NCBI GenBank assembly: GCA_041736305.1
Contig: JBGSTX010000060.1
Span: 1-13,099, forward strand
Reading direction: 5' to 3'
DNA: 13,099 nt
DNA from: Oligoflexus sp.
Lineage (GTDB): Bacteria > Bdellovibrionota_B > Oligoflexia > Oligoflexales > Oligoflexaceae
Below are positions 499 through 13,099 of this stretch, in pieces (positions within the stretch are counted from its first letter, which is position 1; each line of letters begins with the position of its first letter). Made by a program: the position numbers and the translations under genes. The notes below the pieces were generated by a model. It was given only the letters and a program-made list of their open reading frames with translations. It was not told where the DNA came from and searched no databases.

Positions 499-1476
499 GT
501 GGATTTTTGCTCGACTAAAATAGGTTTTTTTTGCCTAGGCCTTTGGATCTGCGCTCCCTGGCAGCCAGAGACCTGGTCCTACGCCCCCCGACTGCGGGGC
601 CAGCTTCGTATAGAAAAAATGCTTTCTCTCCAGAGGAGCTTGCCGACCCGCCTCACCTGGGCTTTAGGTGGGCCAGAGCGCACTTTGGAATTTTCCTGGA
701 TCGCAGAGCAGCAAGGAGTCGACCTCAGTTATTTCCCGTCTGGACCGCTTCCGGGCCCCATCGAAATTCCTCTGCCGGGTGATCCTGATCCTTCGAGTAT
801 CGAGGTAGACAGTCTCAATTGTTCATTAAAAGAGGGTCAGGACTGGACCTATAGCGGTCTTGGTCTTCACTTCTCCGCGGCTACCTGTCTCCAAGAAGGC
901 GGTCTACACCTTAGCTATAAGACCAGGCCTCAAGCCCTTCTACGCTTCCCGCTCGCAGCCAACCAAAGCACTCCTCCCTATCACCTAATCGCAGAGAGAC
1001 AAGTTCCGGGCCAGGCCTGGCAGGCAATCGACGTAGCTTGGGAACGGGGGGAGCTCGTTTTTAGAAAAGAAGACTACTACCCAGGTGCCAAGCTTCGCGT
1101 GCATTACCAAGAGGCCTATCTCGAAGCTGGATTGGTAGCGGTTCCGCGGAACGTCGCACAGGATACGATGAGCGTTGCGGCTATGCCCCGCACTTGCAAG
1201 CTTTCCGACCTGCTCATTGCCGGGGACTTCCTACAATCAAATTGCTCGGCGGCTCCCAGGGAATCGATGACCTTAGTCTTCGAGCAAACTCTTCAAGCTA
1301 GTAGCATCGACGGCAGCGAACTATTGCCTTTGAGATTTTCTGAGAAAGCTCGCTGGCGAATCCTAGTGGATGGCAGGGAAGAATTCGGTTTTCAGCGAAA
1401 AGGCAATCGCTTCACGCTCTTCCCATCTGGGTCTAAAGGACAGCAAGCCAGCCTCGAGGCGGAAATTAAACTCTAG
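499..1476 (+). CDS. Hypothetical protein, probably exported, with degenerate beta-rich modules
   Basis: 325-aa ORF filling the space up to the convergent gene. Hydrophobic N-terminus (KIGFFCLGLWICA). No family recognised. Start uncertain (GTG 499 or ATG 619). Confidence 0.65.
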   Translation: MDFCSTKIGFFCLGLWICAPWQPETWSYAPRLRGQLRIEKMLSLQRSLPTRLTWALGGPERTLEFSWIAEQQGVDLSYFPSGPLPGPIEIPLPGDPDPSSIEVDSLNCSLKEGQDWTYSGLGLHFSAATCLQEGGLHLSYKTRPQALLRFPLAANQSTPPYHLIAERQVPGQAWQAIDVAWERGELVFRKEDYYPGAKLRVHYQEAYLEAGLVAVPRNVAQDTMSVAAMPRTCKLSDLLIAGDFLQSNCSAAPRESMTLVFEQTLQASSIDGSELLPLRFSEKARWRILVDGREEFGFQRKGNRFTLFPSGSKGQQASLEAEIKL

Positions 1477-1478
1477 GT

Positions 1479-2384
1479 TCAACTCCCCTTGAGCTGCTCG
1501 AGCACTGCATGAGCTCTAGCCAGACCATGCTCAGGCTTGAGATGCCAAGCGCATTCACAAAAATCACTTTGATCACTCCGTAGGACAAGATCAGAACCGC
1601 GATGTGTACTTGCAGGATTGATTTGATTCATCAAGGTCGAATAATATTCATGCCAGAGATTTTTTTCTTCATTTTTAACAAGGATCCAAGGTGCGATATT
1701 AACTAACTTTGCACCTTTAGCTTCTAGTCTCAATCGAAACTGACTGATCTTCTGAATATATGCTTCGGATACGATTCTATCGTTAAATTCCAGAGGTACG
1801 ACCGGGATATCCAGACAGGCAGTATAATCCCCGTTCTTATCCATAAAAGGAGACCAGGGATCAGAAGGAACTTCCTTGAACAGAGACTGTATCAGTGCGC
1901 GGGCTGGATTGACTTCTCTGGGATAAGGCATCCACCACGCTAACAATCTTTCAAGAGCGCTCAAATTACCCTCAAGATAACTCGCAATGCGCAGGCTTTT
2001 AGCTACTTGTACTGCTTTATGTGGTTCGGACTGCGCCTGATTCCAGAACTCGAGACTTGAGTATATTACGGTATCACCTGCTTTGGCTTTACTCAAAGCA
2101 AGTTCTCGCATCAGCATCGGGTCATTGATTTCCGACGGGATAGCGAGATTAATCACAGGCATATCCAAGTGAGCCTCAAGCTCCGAGGAACGCATATTCC
2201 AAAATGCATTGCTCCCACCAGCAATTATCACGCGGCTAGGGCGATCCTTGAAAACCTCGAGTAGCTTAGCCTTTTTTAGAAAGAGACCTACCGATTCATT
2301 CTGAGCAAACCTGCTGGCCCAAGCAAAGGCAAAGCCGAAAGCTAACCATATAGCTATCAGTATTTTAATTTTTGACAAGCTCAT
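1479..2384 (-). CDS. SGNH-like (AlgJ/DltD-type) membrane-anchored acyltransferase partner
   Basis: N-terminal TM/signal segment; IIAGGSNA (G-x-S block I), INLAI and C-terminal FCECAWHL His block. ATGA overlap with the upstream MBOAT gene. Confidence 0.72.
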   Translation of the reverse strand: MSLSKIKILIAIWLAFGFAFAWASRFAQNESVGLFLKKAKLLEVFKDRPSRVIIAGGSNAFWNMRSSELEAHLDMPVINLAIPSEINDPMLMRELALSKAKAGDTVIYSSLEFWNQAQSEPHKAVQVAKSLRIASYLEGNLSALERLLAWWMPYPREVNPARALIQSLFKEVPSDPWSPFMDKNGDYTACLDIPVVPLEFNDRIVSEAYIQKISQFRLRLEAKGAKLVNIAPWILVKNEEKNLWHEYYSTLMNQINPASTHRGSDLVLRSDQSDFCECAWHLKPEHGLARAHAVLEQLKGS

Positions 2385-3736
2385 CTCCCGTAAACAAAGC
2401 CAAGTTTAGATGAAACCGGAAAGAAGAGTAAAAACATCGCAAAAGCTAGCGCAAAAGCCACATTTCCATTTAAGAATGCATAGGGATGACCTTCGACGGC
2501 TTCATCTTCGCCCCAGACTTCCCACAGTATAAAACCCGTGGCTGCGCAAACGATGACAAGCCCCTCAGGTCCGAGCTTCATCATAAGGTCGTCGAGGATA
2601 GATTGCCTTTGCTTGAGATCGCTCAACCATGCCCGTCCGCTAAACATAGTTTTCATCTTCGCGAACAGTCGGCCTGTCTCAGGATCCATGAATAGAAATC
2701 GTCCGACTAAAAGTGTGAGGTAGAGGTGCACTCGAGCACACCAAGCTGGGAGGGAAAGATTAGATAGAAATCCCACAAAAAAGATGAACGAGCAGGCGTG
2801 GAAAAAACCCCAGATGAGATAATTTATGGTCGTCCCATGCCACATGGCTGAGAGCATGAAGACCAGAAAGGGAAGAAAGGCCCGCCTCCACCAGCGCGCC
2901 GCATAACGAGTACGGAGTCGATTGTAAACTTGCTCATGGAACCAGCGACCAAGACCAATGTGCCAGCGCCGCCAGAACTCCGGTAAGTTGCGAGATCCAA
3001 AAGGCTGCCTGAAATTATAGATAATGGGCAGCCCCAAAATGCGAGCTATCCCGAAAGCCAAGAGAGAATAACCACAGAAATCGAAGTAGACCTGAAACTC
3101 GAAGGCCAAGGTGGAGCTGAGGATGCGGAGGGGCGAAGTGCTCTCGCCGAGGTCGACTAGTCGGGAAAGATGGAGAGCCAAAACAAACTTGAAAGTAGCT
3201 CCAACAAGTATGAGAGGCAGAGCTTCGTCTAAGACGCCCTTGTTGAATCGAAATCTGTAGTCCCGTACCCTTCTGAGGAAACTAGGAGACTCGATAGGAC
3301 CAGAAATGAATTTTGGGAAGTAGCAGAGCGCTAATAAATAGTCCAAGGGATGGGGAAGCTTTTCTTCGCCTTGGAGCACGGCATTCATAATCCCTATGAG
3401 CTGTAAAAAGTAGAATGAGTAACCCATCAACCAAAGCGCAGTCGTCGGCTGTGCAGCATTGCTAGCTGAGAGCACCGCAATATGCCCCCTCTGCTGCAGC
3501 AGGATAAAGAATGAAATCATGAGCAACTGCGGGAGCCAGAGCACCCAAAAGCTTTTTCCCCAAGCCCTCTGGGCCACAAGGAACAGATAACTGTAAGTGG
3601 AGATGCAGCACGCGAGCAGAAAAACGGGAGTAGACCAGCTACCCGAAAGAACGCGCATGAGAATCAATGAACTGAGCACAAGGAGAGTTTTGGCGAAGAC
3701 AGGATGGCGCAAGCTGGAGACTAGGGACTGTAGCAT
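2381..3736 (-). CDS. MBOAT family O-acyltransferase (AlgI/DltB-like)
   Basis: Motifs MGYSFY, YFPKFISGPI, QVYFDFCGYS, NFRQPF, EFWRRWHIGL and LSAMWHG (catalytic His), YLIWG; multiple hydrophobic segments. Confidence 0.95.
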   Translation of the reverse strand: MLQSLVSSLRHPVFAKTLLVLSSLILMRVLSGSWSTPVFLLACCISTYSYLFLVAQRAWGKSFWVLWLPQLLMISFFILLQQRGHIAVLSASNAAQPTTALWLMGYSFYFLQLIGIMNAVLQGEEKLPHPLDYLLALCYFPKFISGPIESPSFLRRVRDYRFRFNKGVLDEALPLILVGATFKFVLALHLSRLVDLGESTSPLRILSSTLAFEFQVYFDFCGYSLLAFGIARILGLPIIYNFRQPFGSRNLPEFWRRWHIGLGRWFHEQVYNRLRTRYAARWWRRAFLPFLVFMLSAMWHGTTINYLIWGFFHACSFIFFVGFLSNLSLPAWCARVHLYLTLLVGRFLFMDPETGRLFAKMKTMFSGRAWLSDLKQRQSILDDLMMKLGPEGLVIVCAATGFILWEVWGEDEAVEGHPYAFLNGNVAFALAFAMFLLFFPVSSKLGFVYGR

Positions 3737-3768
3737 CAGAGTCTCGGCATAAAATAAGAATCGACAAG

Positions 3769-3808
3769 AAAAAATGGCAAGTCCGGCCCGTAGGGGCCGA
3801 ACTATGCC
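3769..3808 (-). terminator. Intrinsic (Rho-independent) terminator
   Basis: Minus strand GGCATAGTTCGGCCC-CTAC-GGGCCGGACTTGCC-A-TTTTTT: 6-bp all-GC core, extended outer stem, then a U6 tract. Confidence 0.85.
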
Positions 3809-3845
3809 GCAAAAATCTCTACACTGAGGAGTCGATTGCAGAACT
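3769..3845 (-). ncRNA. Candidate sigma54-dependent small RNA (~77 nt)
   Basis: Bounded by a sigma54 promoter (3856-3872) and a terminator (3769-3808). No ORF inside (only GTG-TAG). Carries CUCCUC in the loop of a possible 5' stem. The +1 position is inferred from -12 spacing. Confidence 0.6.
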
Positions 3846-3855
3846 TTCTCTGTGT

Positions 3856-3872
3856 TGCATACTCCATGCCAA
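3856..3872 (-). promoter_or_regulatory. Sigma54 (-24/-12) promoter
   Basis: Minus strand TTGGCATGGAGTATGCA against consensus YTGGCACGRNNNTTGCW: exact GG-N10-GC spacing and two mismatches. Starts 7 bp after the activator stop codon. Confidence 0.8.
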
Positions 3873-3879
3873 GGATCTT

Positions 3880-5433
3880 TTAGGGAATTTCTTGGAAGAA
3901 TGAGTGCCCTGCTTGCGAAGGGTCTTTCAAAGTTTGATGAGAGATGTCAGTTTTTGACAGGACCCTATGGGAGACGCTGATCCCATGATCTCGCATTTTG
4001 GCTTTCAGAGTGTTGCGAGAAAGCCCCAACCTCCAACAAGCCTGCTGGAGGTTACCTTCAACATAGCTCAGGACTGTCGGCAGGAGCACTGACTCAAGAT
4101 TGAAAACAAGCTCTTGATAAATATTGCTGTGATCGCTTCGCAGCAGCAGCTCGGTTTGCCTAAGGAAACTCTCTTGCGAAACATCAGACGGAGTGACGTT
4201 CAAGTCATTCACGATATGCGAAGGAAGAAACTCTGGACGCATGACGCTGCCATCGGTATGGGCTAGGGCATAACGCACCGAACTTTGCAGTTCACGCAGA
4301 TTGCCCGGCCAATCATAAGCTCCTATACGCTCGAAGACCCGCGTATCTATGTCAACAGTCTCCTTGGCGAATTCACTCTTAAATTGCTCGGTAAAGAAGG
4401 TGACAAGGTCATGGAGATCTTCTTTGCGCTCACGTAAGGGCGGTAGGCTGATGGTGAAGACGTTGAGACGATAGAAGAGGTCGACTCGAAACAAGCCTTG
4501 CCTCACCATGCCGATGAGATCTTTATTCGTAGCGGCAACTATTCGCACATCGGTCTCAATAGTTTCATTGCCACCAAGCCGCTCAAAACGTTGGTCCTGC
4601 AGGAGTCTGAGCACTTTTGCTTGAGTGGCAGGAGACATATCGGCGACTTCGTCTAAGAAGATAGTGCCCCCATCAGCGTACTCGAATTTTCCTATCCTTC
4701 TCTTCAAAGCTCCTGTAAAAGCGTTTTTTTCATGTCCAAATAGTTCACTTTCCAAAATCGTTTCGGAAAGAGCTGCACAGTTGATAGCAAGAAACTGAGA
4801 GCGATTGCGTCGACTATGCTCATGGACAGCGCGGGCTACAAGTTCTTTGCCTGTTCCGCTTTCCCCCAAAATGAGAATATTGCCATTGGTCGGCGCAAAA
4901 CGACCGATCTTCTTGTAAACATCTTGCATGGCTGCTGACGAACCTATCATGAGTGTACGGGCTTCAACGCTATTGCGTTCAAATTCTAAGGCTCGGGGTC
5001 TTCGTTTTGCATGAGAGGGTTCAGACTCTTGGCTTTCGTCGGACTTCAGACGTTCTAAGCTTCCACCCCGTGTGCGAAGAGCACGATCGATTGTAGCCAG
5101 CAAATGCCGAAGATCTACAGGCTTCAAAAGGTATTCGAAAGCGCCGTGCTTACTGGCTTCTATGGTGCTCGTAGTCGTCGAGTAGGCTGTAAAGACGATT
5201 ACTGGAATATCAATGTGCGAGGCCTTGATTTCCTTCAGCAGGTCAATTCCATTGGCCTCATTGAGGCGAAGGTCCAAAAGCACCACATCAGGGGGATTTT
5301 GATTGAGCTGGACGATGGCTTGTTGGGGGCTAGCAGCTTCCAGTACCCTAAGCAGAGAGCTTTCTAAGCTGCTACGTATCGAATAGCGAAGGGTCTGATC
5401 GTCGTCGACGACTAAAAGTTTATACACCTGCAA
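3880..5433 (-). CDS. Sigma54-dependent two-component response regulator (NtrC/AtoC family: receiver, AAA+, Fis HTH)
   Basis: Receiver LLVVDDD, VLLDL, FTAY, LLKP; Walker A GESGTGKE; ELFGHEKNAFTGA; Walker B IFLDEV; DLFYRL; WPGNLREL; HTH GNLQQACWRLGLSRNTLKAKM. Start placed at TTG 5433, with GGAGG 7 nt upstream and 1 nt after the kinase stop, rather than at 5463. Confidence 0.96.
   Translation of the reverse strand: MQVYKLLVVDDDQTLRYSIRSSLESSLLRVLEAASPQQAIVQLNQNPPDVVLLDLRLNEANGIDLLKEIKASHIDIPVIVFTAYSTTTSTIEASKHGAFEYLLKPVDLRHLLATIDRALRTRGGSLERLKSDESQESEPSHAKRRPRALEFERNSVEARTLMIGSSAAMQDVYKKIGRFAPTNGNILILGESGTGKELVARAVHEHSRRNRSQFLAINCAALSETILESELFGHEKNAFTGALKRRIGKFEYADGGTIFLDEVADMSPATQAKVLRLLQDQRFERLGGNETIETDVRIVAATNKDLIGMVRQGLFRVDLFYRLNVFTISLPPLRERKEDLHDLVTFFTEQFKSEFAKETVDIDTRVFERIGAYDWPGNLRELQSSVRYALAHTDGSVMRPEFLPSHIVNDLNVTPSDVSQESFLRQTELLLRSDHSNIYQELVFNLESVLLPTVLSYVEGNLQQACWRLGLSRNTLKAKMRDHGISVSHRVLSKTDISHQTLKDPSQAGHSFFQEIP
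3925..3959. promoter_or_regulatory. Putative tandem upstream activator sequences for an enhancer-binding protein
   Basis: Perfect palindrome TGTCA-N5-TGACA at 3945-3959 and degenerate copy TTTCA-N5-TGATG at 3925-3939. Centres are 20 bp apart, about -80 to -114 from the predicted +1. Confidence 0.55.
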
Positions 5434-5434
5434 G

Positions 5435-6925
5435 TCAAGGCCTCCCCAGTTCAAAGTGTCCAAATGTCGGCAAGAAAAAGCCGACTATAGCTCCTGAGTT
5501 CACTTGGTTTCTTGCAAAAATCTCGCCACCATGTGCCTCGACTATCTGCTTGCTGATCGAGAGACCAAGACCTGTTCCGGCATCTTTACTGGAAAAAAAA
5601 GGCTCAAAGATTTGAGGCAGCAGGTTTTCAGGTATGCCGCGCCCGGTGTCCTGTACTTCGAGTCTAACTCTTCCTAGAGCGGGCTCGTTTGCCCAGGTAA
5701 CGGTTATAGCCGCCCCTTGTGGGCTTGCATCGAGCGAATTGAGTAAAATATTGAGCAATACTTGCTGCAGCTGTTGGAAATCACCTAACACCTCGAGGTC
5801 ATGGGCTTGGCTTAAACTTCGAATTTTGACTTTTTGAATTTCGGCTCGACCACGAACCAACATAAGACAGTAATCGATAAGGCGGGCAATCGATATCCTG
5901 CGTGGAAAAATCTTCGGCGGTTTCGAAAAATCAAGTAAGGTTTGGACCGTTTTTTCAAGCCGACATATCTCCTGTTCTATCATCAAAAGATCGTCCTCTT
6001 TGATTCCCCCCCGCCCTTTCTCCAAGCCTGACTGTACCAATAGTTTTATGGACATCAGTGGGTTTCTGATTTCATGCGCGGTTCCTGCGGCGAGTTGGCC
6101 GATGGCAGCTAGCTTTTCCGAACGGAGTACCTCTTGCTGGGAGCGCTGAAGGCGCGTCACGACTCTTTCGACTTCGATGGCAATAGCGTCGAGTACGTGC
6201 CTGAGCTCTTGCATATTGAGATTTGGTGCGAGCTCTATGGGTCCTACGACCTCGTTAAGTCGATGAGTTGTCATCGATAATGAAACATTCATGTCGACCA
6301 TCGTGCGACGAGTCCGACGGAAGGCAGCCACACCAGCCGCAAAACCACCGAGTGATCCACAGATCGCAACAAAGAGCAGCATCAAAGAGATTCGGCTCGA
6401 TGAAACCCGGTGCTCCTTCACAGTACTGAGCATCACATTTTCATTGTAGTCGAGGTATTCATGGGCCGGGAGTATGATTTCTCGGGTAAGGATATTATCG
6501 ATTTGGGCGTCTGACTTTCGATTGCTCTCGGCACTCTGCGGCCGTTCCTGATTTTTTTCAAGCGCAGCTAAGAATCGCTGATAGCCCTTCTTGAGCCGTT
6601 TGACTATCGCTTGTTCTTCAGGCGTAGTAGCCAATCGACTTACTTCAGTCATCCATCGATCTGTTAACATCAGCAGGCTAGCTAAATTCCCATCCTCGTG
6701 TGTTTCATCTAACTGGCTTCGATAGACAACGGTGCGAATTTCTCTCAAGCTTATTTCTAACTCCTCTGCCGCGCGTACGCTTGCTGCATTGAGTTCTAGA
6801 GCGCGCGACAAATCATCGTAGAGCTGCCTGACATACCAGGCGCCACCGACACCCAAGAGAAGGAGAAGCCCGCTGATCGCATAGAGTGGCCACGGAATCT
6901 CACGGACCAGCAGACGCCTCAACAT
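5435..6925 (-). CDS. Membrane sensor histidine kinase (NtrB/AtoS-like), probable cognate of the downstream activator
   Basis: Two TM segments around a helical sensor; RSEKLAAIGQLAAGTAHEIRNPL H-box, QVLLNILLNSLDA N-box, DTGRG, FEPFFSSK, GTGLGL. AGGAG RBS upstream of the ATG. Confidence 0.95.
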   Translation of the reverse strand: MLRRLLVREIPWPLYAISGLLLLLGVGGAWYVRQLYDDLSRALELNAASVRAAEELEISLREIRTVVYRSQLDETHEDGNLASLLMLTDRWMTEVSRLATTPEEQAIVKRLKKGYQRFLAALEKNQERPQSAESNRKSDAQIDNILTREIILPAHEYLDYNENVMLSTVKEHRVSSSRISLMLLFVAICGSLGGFAAGVAAFRRTRRTMVDMNVSLSMTTHRLNEVVGPIELAPNLNMQELRHVLDAIAIEVERVVTRLQRSQQEVLRSEKLAAIGQLAAGTAHEIRNPLMSIKLLVQSGLEKGRGGIKEDDLLMIEQEICRLEKTVQTLLDFSKPPKIFPRRISIARLIDYCLMLVRGRAEIQKVKIRSLSQAHDLEVLGDFQQLQQVLLNILLNSLDASPQGAAITVTWANEPALGRVRLEVQDTGRGIPENLLPQIFEPFFSSKDAGTGLGLSISKQIVEAHGGEIFARNQVNSGAIVGFFLPTFGHFELGRP

Positions 6926-6972: not shown

Positions 6973-8427
6973 TCATAGTCGATGAGGTGAGTCAACCGTA
7001 GCTGGACTGCTCTTGGGCAGGAATAGCGGAAGCTTAATGGCAAACGTCGACCCCTTGCCCGGTGCGCTGCTAAGCTCAACTTTGCCCCCGTGGGCTTCGA
7101 CGATCTTCTTGGCGACCGATAGCCCGAGACCTACCCCAGGGATGGTTTGCTTGGTAGCTTTGGTCCGGCGGAAGGGTTCGAAAATTTTATGTTGATCTTC
7201 AGCATCAATGCCGATCCCTTGATCCTGGATCGTAACCCTAGCAAAACCCTCTTCTTTACGAATAGCTACCTTGATAGTCCCGCCATGCGGAGAATACTTG
7301 ATCGCATTGCTCATCAGATTGTGCATGACTTGATTGATCCTCAAAGGGTCGCAGTCACAGGTCATAGGTCCTTCAGCGACAAAGGAAATTTGATGTATTT
7401 TTGAGGATGATTCATGCAGGGATACCGCCTCCTTCACAATATCGCGAACGTCATAAGGGGATTTTTTGAGCTCGAGATGTCCAGCTTCGACGCGACTGGA
7501 TTCCAAAAGATCTCCGACCATCCTATCGAGCAGGCTAACCTGGTTTGAGATGATGCTGAGGATACGCTTTCGATCAGAGGTTGGCATTTCATCCATGTTC
7601 AGGATTTCTGCTGAAAGCTTGATCGCGCCCAAAGGGTTTCTTAGATCATGCGCAACGCCGGCTAGGAAGCGCAGCTGATTGGATTTTTGCTCACCCAGGC
7701 GCTGGACCATATCGCGGAAAGCCCCACTCATCAATTGGATTTCCTGAACACCCTCCTTGATTTCGGCTATTTCGAAATCCTTGCCGTTGAAGGCGGTGAG
7801 ACTGGCATGCAAGTTCCTTATCGGCTTGTATATCCAGTTACGGAAAAAATACCACATGGTCGGGAAGGTCAGCATACAAATCACGACATAGAATATTCCG
7901 AGGGCATTGGCTATTCGATTCTCATTTTCGGCGCGCGTTTCCAGCTCGCCAGCTTGTCGCATGTTGATGGAGGTGAGGCCTTTGGCTTCCTCAGCTGCGG
8001 ACTCCAGAGACTGACCAACGAGCATGTAAGCGTCGAGCGGAAGCGTCTCGCTGAGATCGAGTTCTTCGATCGTCACAAAGTAGTTTTTGACCTTGCCACG
8101 TAGGCGCTCGACCAATTCCTTTTCGTTATGACCTGCTTGTATATGGCGATTCGCCTCGTCGAGCCAAAGGCTAATTTCCTCGATCCTCGCCTGCTGCGCT
8201 TGCAGATGAATGGCATCCTTAGTCATGCGGTAGAGGAACCATTCTTTGCTATGGCCAAGTAAGCTGATGCGAATTTCTTCGGCGGCCCGCACGCTCTCAA
8301 TGGTTTGTCCAATGTGGGCACTGGTTTTTTTTAGGCTAGATGCGATGAAAATAAGCGAGAGTGCTGAGGTTAGGAGAGTTATAAAATGTATTGACGACAA
8401 GACATTGAGGACTTGCTTTAGTTTCAT
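6973..8427 (-). CDS. Membrane sensor histidine kinase with HAMP domain
   Basis: Two TM segments; HAMP-like KPIRNL...EIQLMSGAFRDMVQRL; H-box AHDLRNPL; NLMSNAIKYS; DQGIGI; FEPFRR; GVGLGL. Confidence 0.95.
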   Translation of the reverse strand: MKLKQVLNVLSSIHFITLLTSALSLIFIASSLKKTSAHIGQTIESVRAAEEIRISLLGHSKEWFLYRMTKDAIHLQAQQARIEEISLWLDEANRHIQAGHNEKELVERLRGKVKNYFVTIEELDLSETLPLDAYMLVGQSLESAAEEAKGLTSINMRQAGELETRAENENRIANALGIFYVVICMLTFPTMWYFFRNWIYKPIRNLHASLTAFNGKDFEIAEIKEGVQEIQLMSGAFRDMVQRLGEQKSNQLRFLAGVAHDLRNPLGAIKLSAEILNMDEMPTSDRKRILSIISNQVSLLDRMVGDLLESSRVEAGHLELKKSPYDVRDIVKEAVSLHESSSKIHQISFVAEGPMTCDCDPLRINQVMHNLMSNAIKYSPHGGTIKVAIRKEEGFARVTIQDQGIGIDAEDQHKIFEPFRRTKATKQTIPGVGLGLSVAKKIVEAHGGKVELSSAPGKGSTFAIKLPLFLPKSSPATVDSPHRL

Positions 8428-8485: not shown

Positions 8486-8514
8486 CAATAAGAAGGGCAG
8501 CAACATGCTGCCCT
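8486..8514 (-). terminator. Probable intrinsic terminator of the DUF4142 gene
   Basis: Perfect 9-bp inverted repeat AGGGCAGCA (8494-8502)/TGCTGCCCT (8506-8514), followed on the minus strand by TCTTATTG, an imperfect U-rich tail. Confidence 0.6.
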
Positions 8515-8559
8515 CTGCTTGCAAGGAAAGCTTAGCTCTCCCGATCTATTTCAAAAAAA

Positions 8560-9218: not shown

Positions 9219-9737
9219 TTACTTTACAAGATCGGCACGTTTAAAAGTGGATTTGAGAGGTACAGATGCTGTCGAACCATTGAAACGTTCTTCGAGAGAC
9301 TCCGTCGCCTGGTTGAGAAGCTCAGCGGTATCGTGGAAAGTATCGCCCTTTCGCAGGTAAGTCCGATGAGTGAAATCGCCATTCTGCAAAGCATCGATAT
9401 GCTTTTCAAACGCGACTATTGGACCAACCAGTCTATGCGTGTACCAGATAGAAAGCACCACCATCGAAGCTACGTAGCAAGCGACAATCAGATAAATGAA
9501 GAACTGAATGGACGCGAGGTTCTGCCTCAGCATTGACTCAATAGTCGCCTCAGCTCGCGTGAGATGCATGGTGTAATCGATAAATCTGGCCATGTTCACA
9601 TAAATTACAAAACTTAAGAAGACTCCGAAAGCAAGGGATACAGTAATACAGTAGATACCAAGCTTAGTCTGAACCAGAGGACGAATCAAAAAATTGGAAA
9701 GTTTGCGTTTGATTGGCTTTTCTTCCATAGCTTCCAT
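9219..9737 (-). CDS. Small two-TM membrane protein with HAMP-like domain and no output domain
   Basis: RKLSNFLIRPLVQ N-terminus, two hydrophobic helices, then THRLVGPIVAFEKHIDALQNGDF...LRKGD...AELLN. Confidence 0.75.
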   Translation of the reverse strand: MEAMEEKPIKRKLSNFLIRPLVQTKLGIYCITVSLAFGVFLSFVIYVNMARFIDYTMHLTRAEATIESMLRQNLASIQFFIYLIVACYVASMVVLSIWYTHRLVGPIVAFEKHIDALQNGDFTHRTYLRKGDTFHDTAELLNQATESLEERFNGSTASVPLKSTFKRADLVK

Positions 9738-9739
9738 CC

Positions 9740-10771
9740 TTAAGAACCGCTGAGGGCAAATTGAAAACTAAGTTCGCCGATCAAGCTGGGGCCTACTGGA
9801 AAATCCAATCCCATAAGCTTGTACATCATGCATTCGAGAAACACGCTGTCGTTTATGTCGCTTTGTTTCATTTTGAGGGATTTGATGCTTTTTGTAACTG
9901 ATGAATATACGAAAGTATAGCTGAGCTGACCTTGGGCGTTCGGCTCTCGCTCCAGGTGATCGAGGTAGCAGCTGCGAATGTCGGGATCGTTCGCCTCTAG
10001 AGTCTTAGCCATCGCCGGTGCGAAGCTGTTCTGGCGAAATAGGTTCAGTTTGTAGACCATACTGATAGTACGTGAGCTCCGGAACACCTGACGCAGTTCC
10101 TGCTGATCTTGCCCGGCCTTGGTTTTAGCGTTGCTGCCCTTTAAATTCAGGAGGATGCGTCCATCGGCACCATCGATGACAGCTGCGAAGCTGCCTTGGG
10201 ATTTTTCAGGACGAAACACATTCTTGCCTCGCTTGGCGAGAACTTTTAAGAGGCCTTTTTGCATTTGAACTAAATACCAGACTCCAAAATGGGCTAGGTT
10301 TTGGCCGCTAATTTTGAAGCTGTGGCGATAGGGTCCTTGCCACTGCAAGACGTGTCCTTGGGGATCCGTGAGACTAACACGCATGAGATCATATTCATCT
10401 TCTTTCAATTTCCAGACTTTAGCCGGATGGTCCTTAAGATCTTGGGTATCGGTCTGAAATTGATAAAGAAGTTGGCGTTTGCGCCCCAGCAAAGTGAAGG
10501 TAAAGCTCCCGGGACGAAAGCGGGCTGAGCTATCGGCTATGACGCCTTGCAGATAAAAAGCCCCTTCGTCGGCCTCCAAAAGCTCGCCGTTCCATACTTT
10601 CGGCACCAGAGTCCGGAGTTCGCTAGCCGAAAGCCTGGGATAGTAGAATCCAAGGAAAAGGATCAATAAAAAGCCAAAGCTATAGGCACCGCAAACTGGC
10701 AAAACGAGGCCCTCCGCCCATGAGACGAGATCCTCTGAGTATATCAGATCTTGTCTAGCATGGGACTCCAC
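9740..10771 (-). CDS. Exported protein with AgmX/PglI-type (TonB-C-like) C-terminal domain
   Basis: Hydrophobic segment FGFLLILFLGFYY near the N-terminus; C-terminal DIRSCYLDHLEREPNAQGQLSYTF...FLECMMYKLMGLDFP...LSFQF pattern. True start may lie downstream of 10771. Confidence 0.7.
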   Translation of the reverse strand: MESHARQDLIYSEDLVSWAEGLVLPVCGAYSFGFLLILFLGFYYPRLSASELRTLVPKVWNGELLEADEGAFYLQGVIADSSARFRPGSFTFTLLGRKRQLLYQFQTDTQDLKDHPAKVWKLKEDEYDLMRVSLTDPQGHVLQWQGPYRHSFKISGQNLAHFGVWYLVQMQKGLLKVLAKRGKNVFRPEKSQGSFAAVIDGADGRILLNLKGSNAKTKAGQDQQELRQVFRSSRTISMVYKLNLFRQNSFAPAMAKTLEANDPDIRSCYLDHLEREPNAQGQLSYTFVYSSVTKSIKSLKMKQSDINDSVFLECMMYKLMGLDFPVGPSLIGELSFQFALSGS

Positions 10772-11859
10772 GGCAGAGGACGGAGAGAAGTCTCCTCCAC
10801 CAGCGACACGTCATCGACCAGGATCACAGCGTGCTTGAGATCGAGCCGGATGCCTATTTCGGTACCGACGGCATGAACCTCGTGATGGCTAGAAGTAAAG
10901 CAGTGGATTTCACAGCCACTCTTGAGGCCGAGATGATAAACCCTATACATGCCGCGAAAGGCGACGCGTCGCACTAGGGCTCGCATACTAGCGCTATCGT
11001 CATGGACGATATCGTCAGGCCGCAGAAGGACGACGACCTTGTTGCCATGCAGAGGCTTGATGTCGTCCGTGCAAACCAGTTCTCCTAGCTCTGAGATGAG
11101 ACAGCCTTGATCGTTCACTTCCGCGGGCAGGAAAGCCCCCATCCCCAAAAACTCAGCCACCGTCCGCGTTTTCGGTCGGTGGTAGAGATCGTAAGCCGAA
11201 CCCCACTGAATGATTTGTCCCTGGGACATCACGCCGATTTCATCGGCCATATCGAAAGCTTCGTCTTGATTGTGAGTCACTATAAGAGCCGTTACCCCAA
11301 AATACTGCAGCAGAACCTTGAGCTCGTGCTTCATGCGATCCCGAAGCGCTGGATCGAGATTGGAAAAGGGTTCGTCGAGCAGCAGAAGCTCAGGTTCAGG
11401 TGCTAAAGCTCGGGCGAGGGCTACGCGCTGTTGCTGGCCTCCCGATAATTCGCCAGGATAACGGTCACGGTAGGCTTCAAGTGCAACCGAGTGCAGGAGG
11501 TTCTGTACCTTCAGCTTGCGCTGGGCTTCGGGTAGTTGACGAATACCGAAGCCGATATTCTGAGCGACAGTCATATGGGGGAACAGCGCATAATCTTGGA
11601 AAACCACTCCGACCCGGCGTTGTTCCGGCGGAATAAAATTCTCAGGGCTGCTGACGCAGCGCTGATTGAGAGTAATACTCCCCCGCTTGAGGACTTCGAA
11701 TCCGGCCACACAGCGCAGCAACGTGGTCTTCCCACAGCCGCTAGGTCCGAGCAGACAGGCGATCATACCGTCTTTGAGTTCGAGGCTGACGCCGCGCAGA
11801 GTGCTCTTGTCGCCGTATTGATGCTCGACGTCTTCTATCTTCAATACAACGCGGGGCAT
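10744..11859 (-). CDS. fbpC: Fe3+-type ABC transporter ATP-binding subunit (FbpC/PotA family)
   Basis: Walker A GPSGCGKT, VFQDYALFPH, signature LSGGQQQRVALAR, LLLDEPFSNLD, VTHNQDEA, TOBE-like tail. Start placed at ATG 11859 (MPRVVL), 4 nt after the permease stop, with AAGGA upstream. Confidence 0.9.
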   Translation of the reverse strand: MPRVVLKIEDVEHQYGDKSTLRGVSLELKDGMIACLLGPSGCGKTTLLRCVAGFEVLKRGSITLNQRCVSSPENFIPPEQRRVGVVFQDYALFPHMTVAQNIGFGIRQLPEAQRKLKVQNLLHSVALEAYRDRYPGELSGGQQQRVALARALAPEPELLLLDEPFSNLDPALRDRMKHELKVLLQYFGVTALIVTHNQDEAFDMADEIGVMSQGQIIQWGSAYDLYHRPKTRTVAEFLGMGAFLPAEVNDQGCLISELGELVCTDDIKPLHGNKVVVLLRPDDIVHDDSASMRALVRRVAFRGMYRVYHLGLKSGCEIHCFTSSHHEVHAVGTEIGIRLDLKHAVILVDDVSLVEETSLRPLPWSPMLDKI

Positions 11860-11863
11860 TAGT

Positions 11864-13099
11864 TTAGTTTCCTTTCCGACTGAATAAGAACAAAGGCAAG
11901 ATACCGATTCCAACTAGGAGGAGAGCCGGCACAGATGCCCGCTGCCACTCCCCTTCGCTTATAAAGCTGTAGATGCGAACCGACAGGGTGTCCCATCCGA
12001 AGGGTCGCGTCATGAGGGTCAGCGGCATTTCCTTAATTACATCGACAAAAACCAGGAGAAAACCTGAGGCGAAGCTAGTTCGTAGCAGCGGCCAATGAAC
12101 GAGGCGAAACTGGCTCCAGCCATAGGTTCCGAAGAGAGTCGCCGATTCATCGAGCCGCGACGACACTCGTTCGCTGCCAGCGTCGAGCGAGGATCCTGCG
12201 ACAGCTAAAAAACGCACACTGAGCGCCACTACCATGCTGAAAACTGTACCGGTGAGGATGAGACCACCCTTGTAAGCGAAGAATCTCTCCAGAATATCGA
12301 CGAGCCAATGATCGAGGTGGACCAGAGGCAAGAAAACCCCAATCGCCAAAACAGCCCCGGGGATACCGTAACCGAGGTAGGACAGCTGCTTGCTCCGCTC
12401 CAATTTATTGATGGGAAAATAGCGTTTTGCCAGCACCACTATCCCAGCCGCTAGACTCGTGACCGTCGCCGTGAGAAGGCCGAGCAAAATCGATCGCCAA
12501 ATTGCCGATAGATTGTCGGCATCGAGGAACTGCGAGGAATATTGCTTCGCCCAGATGACGAGCTGAGTCGCCGGCACTGCGAAAGCTGCTAGGAAGATGC
12601 CCCAGGCGAAAAGCGAGGCCAGGATCATGGGTGTTCCTCGCAGCAGGAGCCTCTGCATTTTACGCGTCGGATCTTGGGTCGTATAAGCTCGCCTCTGGCG
12701 AGAACGCTGTTCGAGGAAATAGATAAAAAATGCGATCAGAACCAGAAAAGTCGAAAGCTGCGCCGCAGTTTCAGGCGAAAAGAATCCGTACCAAACTTTA
12801 TAAATAGCGGTCGTGAATGTGTTGACGCCGACTATCGTTACCGTACCGAAGTCGTTCAAGACCTCCAGGGCGACCAGACAAAGCCCACCGGCTATCCAGG
12901 GCCGGGCGAAAGCCAACGCCAGTCGCTTAAAAACATAGCGAGGGCTCGCTCCTAGTGAACGGGCAGCTTCCCATGTGCTTCGTCCCTGAGAACTGAAGGC
13001 ATCGTAGCTCAGTACGTACACATAAGGATAAAGCGAGAGGGCGAGCAGGACGATGCCCCCGGGGAGGGAACGGATTTCGGGGATAAAGGCATCTGTGCC
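11864..13099 (-). CDS. fbpB: Fe3+ ABC transporter permease (FbpB family), 5' partial
   Basis: Frame is open to the window end (GTDAFIPEIRSLPGGIVLLALSLYPYVY...). Two EAA loops (EAARSLG, DESATLFG) and motifs LNDFGTV, GYGIPGAVLAIG, KEMPLTLMTRPFGWDTL. Confidence 0.92.
   Translation of the reverse strand, partial: GTDAFIPEIRSLPGGIVLLALSLYPYVYVLSYDAFSSQGRSTWEAARSLGASPRYVFKRLALAFARPWIAGGLCLVALEVLNDFGTVTIVGVNTFTTAIYKVWYGFFSPETAAQLSTFLVLIAFFIYFLEQRSRQRRAYTTQDPTRKMQRLLLRGTPMILASLFAWGIFLAAFAVPATQLVIWAKQYSSQFLDADNLSAIWRSILLGLLTATVTSLAAGIVVLAKRYFPINKLERSKQLSYLGYGIPGAVLAIGVFLPLVHLDHWLVDILERFFAYKGGLILTGTVFSMVVALSVRFLAVAGSSLDAGSERVSSRLDESATLFGTYGWSQFRLVHWPLLRTSFASGFLLVFVDVIKEMPLTLMTRPFGWDTLSVRIYSFISEGEWQRASVPALLLVGIGILPLFLFSRKGN

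Follow-up and report, generated by a model that had tools for sequence, protein, structure and literature searches.

The window, by which we mean the whole stretch of 13,099 nucleotides analyzed here, carries on its minus strand two kinase genes, the gene of an NtrC-family sigma-54 activator and, beyond a gap, an MBOAT acyltransferase gene with a partner gene. Read along this strand, the activator stop codon (3882-3880) is followed by 8 nt, a -24/-12 motif and a predicted transcription start near 3845. A sequence-only reading had named a promoter, a hairpin and a U6 tract here, and re-reading of the coordinates placed all three on the minus strand as described. The features are collected in Table 1.

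Table 1. Genes and sequence features of the activator locus in the window
Feature	Position	Strand	Remarks
MBOAT partner gene (inferred label, SGNH-like)	1479..2384	-	Label from GGSN motif and position; no Pfam match
MBOAT acyltransferase gene	2381..3736	-	PF03062; 33 nt behind terminator; possible read-through target
Intrinsic terminator	3769..3808	-	14-pair hairpin (3808-3776), then A and U6 (3774-3769)
Predicted 77-nt RNA	3769..3845	-	Start inferred from -12 element, end from U tract
Weak 5' stem-loop (+4 to +28)	3818..3842	-	Centroid structure; pair probabilities 0.53-0.67
Sigma-54 (-24/-12) promoter	3856..3871	-	Motif with correct GG-N10-GC spacing
NtrC-family sigma-54 activator gene	3880..5463	-	Receiver PF00072, AAA+ PF00158, Fis-type HTH PF02954
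Proximal palindromic box	3926..3938	.	Centre at -87; inside activator coding sequence
Distal palindromic box, candidate activator-binding site	3946..3958	.	Centre at -107; within codons 502-506 of the activator (527-aa reading)
Cognate sensor kinase candidate	5435..6925	-	HisKA and HATPase_c
Second kinase	6973..8427	-	Linkage loose; no constant member of the module

The activator probably starts at the TTG at 5433, which gives the 517 aa of the database form and agrees with the start of its orthologues, to which it is about 57% identical. Among 80 fetched loci, the closest was that of an Oligoflexus sp. (L007, 57%). The activator tail (3880-3915) runs about 12 residues beyond that of the relatives, the stop codon coming later and only just before the promoter. 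Four genomes of the same genus also carry the activator (G002, G006, G007, and G011; the window's own genome is G000), and in all four, thus in 5/5 genomes with the window, it is adjoined by an orthologue of the kinase at 5435-6925 (about 52% identity). Within the genus, 4 of the 13 other genomes have an orthologue of this kinase; the search of 117 further genomes in the class found none. The second kinase adjoins the activator only in the window and at a broken locus on contig C165 of G007; in G002, G006, and G007 (C221), the closest matches to it are at other places, and none was found in G011 at an E value of 1e-60. Thus, of the kinase-kinase-activator module to which the RNA had been ascribed, the linkage of the first kinase held up but that of the second did not. 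A metagenome scan with the kinase returned distant kinases only, at most 39% identical in the best segment. The closest locus outside the genus among those fetched was from a member of the Gemmataceae (L008:2448-5385), where kinase and activator have full-length relatives (35% and 45%, respectively) in unchanged order; a shared origin of the module is possible, and no promoter motif was found behind this planctomycete pair.

Upstream of the second kinase, a terminator-like hairpin (8493-8515, minus strand) separates it from a DUF4142 gene, and the kinase operon therefore probably has its own start. A weak match of this hairpin to the Rfam family DapZ (E 4.4) was discarded as chance. The neighbors at 499-1476 (plus strand), 9219-10771, and 10744-13099 (both minus strand) are unrelated to the unit; their products are a 325-aa protein without a Pfam family, a HAMP-containing 172-aa protein and a 343-aa protein without a family, and the ATPase and permease of an ABC transporter.

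The window contains no second -24/-12 motif (0.04 matches expected; one was reached by 9 of 200 shuffles), and the genome contains rpoN together with 15 sigma-54 activator domains. A sigma-54 motif lies 8 to 55 nt 3' of the activator stop in 5/5 activator-bearing genomes, the distance being 40 to 55 nt in the four relatives. Upstream of it are two palindromic boxes 20 bp apart, with the consensus GTCAAAATTTGAC, from which a 13-bp operator is predicted. We compared seven related loci from five genomes of the one genus, namely the window, G002, G006, G011, and three copies in G007, and all seven have twin boxes and a sigma-54 promoter at nearly constant spacing. The boxes are centred at -107/-87 or -106/-86 in six of them and at -118/-98, one helical turn (11 bp) further, in G011, and the spacing is unchanged in the window even though its activator stop has moved by about 30 nt. 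In the window's assembly the pair is the sole twin site, scoring 32.0 bits against 15.2 bits for the next pair; this assembly is 92.7% complete, so further box sites may be missing. The boxes were recognized from what the extra G007 copies retain, and a search of 22 genomes of the family with the resulting pattern gave matches in 5, all of them activator bearing, with no match in reversed controls. One of these matches, in G011, sits inside a coding sequence and was rejected as chance, the real boxes of that genome deviating from the pattern; with it removed, the pattern was present in 4/5 activator genomes and 0/17 others. Viral contigs gave no match to the box-promoter pattern. Within the activator gene, a TCA in the distal box is the only codon identical in 5/5 orthologues among 135 four- or sixfold degenerate codons whose residue is conserved, and the location of the predicted operator inside the coding sequence explains the apparent conservation of the protein tail.

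An enhancer upstream of the promoter is the established layout of NtrC-type systems, and the palindromic candidate sites fall within the enhancer range, roughly 80 to 150 bp upstream of the sigma-54 promoter. Twin boxes and promoter would together form such a bacterial enhancer arrangement, to which, we infer, the adjacent activator binds. Because boxes and promoter are kept at 7/7 loci and the twin site is the only one in the assembly, the promoter is very probably real, and we hold with high confidence that the locus contains a genuine sigma-54 transcription unit linked to the activator. This unit should yield an RNA of about 77 nt. Since no other twin site occurs in the assembly, the promoter at 3871-3856 would also be the only output of the activator system detectable there. 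Of the original proposal, a small RNA made from a sigma-54 promoter beside its activator, the promoter and the strong terminator were thus borne out, while a functional role of the RNA as output was not.

Twin boxes also occur at other places in the relatives. At one site in G006 (L181:1501-2162), the boxes are spaced by 19 bp, and a sigma-54 promoter at -105 precedes the gene of a membrane protein with an apparently FliL-like C terminus. A second site upstream of the kinase, which the window does not have, is present in G002 (L190) and G011 (L090:6386-6418); in G002 it comes with a sigma-54 promoter, from which a divergent gene for a 432-aa membrane protein is driven. At the broken G007 locus, the broken kinase and a divergent relative of the window's second kinase flank a second site. 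Finally, in G002 (L196:6732-6764) and G006 (L197:7181-7213) the MBOAT pair and a CobW-like P-loop gene have twin boxes between them; a conserved sigma-70-like promoter toward the CobW-like gene was seen there by eye, and the activator may act at sigma-70 promoters as well.

Folding of the 77-nt piece yields -30.5 kcal/mol (z score of -4.58), a value that none of 200 shuffles equaled. The 5.0-Mb assembly has 64 matches to the sigma-54 motif, and no other is followed by as strong a terminator (-25.9 kcal/mol, with 7 of 8 T, versus -14.4 kcal/mol for the next); the base of the stem is paired here with a probability of 0.97 to 1.0. No competing antiterminator fold was found, the best fold that frees the terminator base being 4.7 kcal/mol worse. 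The same terminator likely also ends the kinase-activator mRNA. Just 3' of it, a few bases at 3746-3751 (minus strand) show complementarity both to the 5' loop (+9 to +15) and to the hairpin's 5' arm. The weak 5' stem-loop presents a 13-nt loop with an anti-Shine-Dalgarno-like CUCCUC (3831-3826), and the single GGA of the RNA is buried in the terminator stem. The transcript had been described as free of open reading frames, and it does lack an ATG and has a GTG that is followed by a stop; however, a frame of about 57 codons, not seen in the relatives, starts with a UUG at +34 and runs through the terminator, and the MBOAT reading frame is open through the whole gap, with no start codon there. 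The MBOAT orthologues have their starts close to the position of the ATG at 3736. The sequence had not been recognized as any known family, and Rfam gave no match at this place up to an E value of 5 and only chance matches for six of the loci. A direct DNA search with the 121-nt element hit 1 of 41 genomes, which was its own, and neither blastn nor nhmmer found a second copy in that genome.

For the RNA itself the case is less firm than for the promoter. A strong hairpin ends about 70 to 80 nt after the start in 6/7 loci, with differing genes downstream. A clear U tract, on the other hand, is present in only three of the seven (the window, G002, and a stand-alone G007 copy); it is partial in G011 and missing from the other two G007 copies, which read like 5' leaders. 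G006 has none, keeping promoter and boxes without hairpin or RNA and passing from the promoter into a gene after about 30 nt. The four RNAs of G002 and G007 clearly form one family. The window's RNA aligns colinearly with them and has the hairpin base in common, but shuffle tests against single copies gave 13/1000 for one pair and 603 and 948 for two others, and the pooled likeness score was equaled by 68 of 2,000 random pieces and equaled or exceeded by 5 of 63 other pieces downstream of sigma-54 motifs. The likeness in sequence is thus marginal. A profile and covariance model built from three relatives only (R1) missed the window's RNA and so lent no support to its membership of the G002/G007 family. 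A second model (R2), which included the window and the promoter, matched 7 of 131 genomes; its hits were the five input loci in three genomes and four weak ones (E 0.004 to 0.09), which have neither boxes nor activator and were rejected, and it did not recover the G011 hairpin. Covariation, one of the proposed tests, was not significant at the related loci, with 50 of 500 shuffles reaching the score in an alignment that misplaces the window's 3' arm by one base. The four related copies have C/U-rich loops in the second hairpin, whereas the CUCCUC of the window sits in the loop of the first, and the A-rich single-stranded stretch that precedes the hairpin in the related copies is not kept in the window's RNA.

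The G007 copies differ in their state. The stand-alone copy on contig C39 (L180:1370-1590) consists of boxes, promoter, and RNA with a U7 tract and has neither activator nor downstream gene; it still contains a remnant of the activator tail (the last codons) with AGGAG and ATG in front, which reads as a 19-codon open reading frame, and the copy may be a relic. On C165 (L173:2050-2330), a frameshifted kinase and activator are followed by a decayed tandem copy of promoter and RNA and then by an intact one. Downstream of the promoter, a protein gene of 110 to 165 aa with a C-terminal membrane segment follows in 4/4 relatives. This protein matched no Pfam family; structural neighbors at a TM score of about 0.5 give a lead, and no more, to a probable winged-helix fold. 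Its gene was not found in the window's genome. In a tree of eight activators, the window, G002, G006, and G007 form a supported group to the exclusion of G011 (99/99, with the root on a long outgroup), and because of this placement the tree suggests, without proving, that the combination of hairpin and downstream gene came first, from which G006 lost the hairpin and the window's genome lost the gene.

Several known systems have a related design. Qrr1 of Vibrio is a sigma-54 small RNA encoded beside the activator gene luxO, on which it feeds back; it is Hfq dependent, and qrr1 lies upstream of and divergent from luxO and not behind it. The parallel with qrr1 that had been drawn therefore applies to a sigma-54 small RNA beside its activator but is otherwise weaker, given this arrangement. 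CrcZ is several times longer and has repeated A-rich motifs. Rfam holds a Pxr model, and the RNA in the window gave no Rfam match and has two stem-loops, so the sequence and three-stem-loop structure of the Pxr family were not found in it. Nor does it show the marks of CrcZ/CrcY, as there was no Rfam match and hfq was found neither in G000 nor in five relatives, one of them a single-contig genome. The parallels with Pxr and crcZ that had also been drawn fit in the order of kinase, sigma-54 regulator, sigma-54 promoter, and RNA (PMC5568312, PMC10217877, PMC6292655). Pxr of Myxococcus xanthus (pxrK-pxrR/nla19-pxr) shares with the window a kinase, a sigma-54 regulator, a sigma-54 promoter, and a structured RNA, all in the same direction, and the synthesis of Pxr depends on the adjacent system and its paralogues each have their own sigma-54 promoter (PMC5568312, PMC10217877). 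The Pxr coding region is given there as 108 nt with three stem-loops, 262 nt behind the regulator (PMC5568312), whereas the window has 77 nt, two stem-loops, a promoter 8 nt behind the stop, and boxes inside the activator codons, and its RNA is poorly conserved even within one genus. In Pseudomonas and Azotobacter (cbrA-cbrB-crcZ), CrcZ is an RpoN-dependent RNA directly behind the activator gene, as predicted for the window; it is also made as a cotranscript with the activator, and processed CrcZ* can persist without RpoN (PMC6292655). CrcZ antagonizes Hfq-Crc, while hfq was not found in the window's genome. NfeR1 of Sinorhizobium meliloti pairs with the start region of its own two-component mRNA and is a model for the feedback predicted below; it is repressed by NtrC and activated by LsrB (PMC10746234), whereas the feedback in the window is a prediction and is not conserved. 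In its control, the unit in the window would work like pxr and cbrAB-crcZ, but it belongs to neither family.

From these features, we propose the following mechanism. The kinase at 5435-6925 would phosphorylate the NtrC-type activator, as its domains and the fixed linkage suggest. The activator would bind the two boxes in its own last codons and open the sigma-54 promoter 87 to 107 bp away. Transcription is predicted to start near 3845 and mostly to stop at the strong terminator, giving the RNA of about 77 nt, while a minority of transcripts would read through into the MBOAT-SGNH genes. Without Hfq, the exposed C/U-rich loop could then pair with the ribosome-binding sites of target mRNAs and lower their translation; if the RNA acts at all, this is its most likely mode, because CUCCUC is accessible, the relatives have C/U-rich loops, GGA is not repeated, and Hfq was not found. 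One candidate target is the start region of the activator itself, which would result in negative feedback. A hairpin-bearing 5' leader, that of the winged-helix membrane-protein gene lost here, is the probable ancestor of the unit. For the RNA being a regulatory small RNA of any kind, we see about an even chance, and the more specific reading, an Hfq-independent anti-Shine-Dalgarno small RNA arranged like pxr and crcZ, is likewise evenly poised between right and wrong.

A scan for targets, with genes called by a crude open reading frame rule, gave a best energy of -33.5 when accessibility was left out, which is within the range of eight shuffled seeds (-30.9 to -37.3), and so no overall signal. 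With accessibility counted, pairing with the activator start ranked 40th among 3,963 crude gene starts and 33rd among the 1,499 with GGAG. This pairing was not kept in G002, G007, or G011, for which 12 hand-picked starts were tried, and feedback on the activator start should be taken as a lead from sequence. In its boldest form, our proposal is that a small RNA was born from a 5' leader within one genus: a portable unit of boxes, promoter, and hairpin serves elsewhere as the read-through leader of the winged-helix gene, lost its hairpin in one genome, and gained a terminator while losing the gene in the window and in one G007 copy, after which the Hfq-independent anti-Shine-Dalgarno loop came to feed back on the activator. 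As a whole, this history is rather unlikely.

Other explanations account for parts of the same evidence. The promoter might serve the genes downstream of it, the 77 nt being a 5' leader whose hairpin attenuates or stabilizes the MBOAT-SGNH mRNA (the winged-helix mRNA in the relatives) and the short RNA a by-product. The protein gene behind the promoter in 4/4 relatives, reached in G006 after about 30 nt and with no hairpin, speaks for this, as do the two G007 copies without a U tract and two further twin-box sites whose sigma-54 promoters, at -105, drive mRNAs directly. The usual targets of the activator thus appear to be protein genes, which makes read-through into the MBOAT gene a serious rival to a small RNA. 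Moreover, MBOAT matches at an E value of 1e-30 occur in 4 of the 22 genomes, all activator bearing (4/5 versus 0/17), and the two closest orthologues of the MBOAT-SGNH pair (G002 and G006) have twin boxes about 200 to 250 bp before the aligned start. Since they share these boxes, the MBOAT gene is no bystander but is connected to the activator system. However, in G002 and G006 the pair lies elsewhere, and the boxes, between it and the divergent CobW-like gene, come without a sigma-54 motif and may serve that neighbor. The MBOAT gene could also be served separately by a sigma-70-like site (3780-3751, minus strand) that begins in the 3' arm of the terminator, though the window has no more of such sites than chance would give (8 found versus 10.2 expected). 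The strength of the window's terminator, with no antiterminator found to compete with it, and the G007 copy that is terminated with no gene downstream also weigh against a leader. We consider a leader quite possible but its probability well short of even.

The hairpin might instead be merely the terminator of the kinase-activator operon, with promoter and boxes as relics of the lost winged-helix gene and a short RNA that has no function. With only 8 nt between activator stop and promoter, no other terminator fits, the relatives' downstream gene was not found in the window's genome, and the RNA sequence has drifted past recognition by the relatives-only model. Yet boxes and promoter have stayed near the consensus and at exact spacing despite an activator identity of about 57% and a moved stop codon, and kinase and activator are intact with no other twin site in the assembly on which to act, so that a functionless remnant is improbable. 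A protein sponge, like CrcZ for Hfq-Crc or CsrB for CsrA, would agree with the gene arrangement, which is that of cbrB-crcZ, with the presence of csrA in the genome, and with the A-rich single-stranded stretch of the related copies. That stretch, however, has gone from the window's RNA, hfq was not found in G000 or the five relatives, and the one GGA is inside the terminator stem, while RNAs of the CsrB/RsmY type need several in loops; a sponge is therefore very unlikely indeed. Pairing with ribosome-binding sites, at the even chance given above, remains our preferred reading of the RNA.

A sigma-54 RNA encoded behind its activator is a design that pxr and crcZ already represent; the twin palindromic boxes inside the last codons of the activator come as an addition to the sequence-only reading. 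In a literature that takes in few of the subscription journals, no paper listed for small RNAs or sigma-54 in Oligoflexus, Oligoflexia, and Bdellovibrio concerned this element, and no sigma-54 small RNA was found described there for the Oligoflexus-like lineage. With this locus, the lineage gains a defined signaling circuit, consisting of a kinase-activator pair with its predicted operator of 13 bp, a small regulon, and an RNA as candidate output. Additionally, as the unit exists in differing states within one genus, the origin of small RNAs from leaders becomes testable by comparison.
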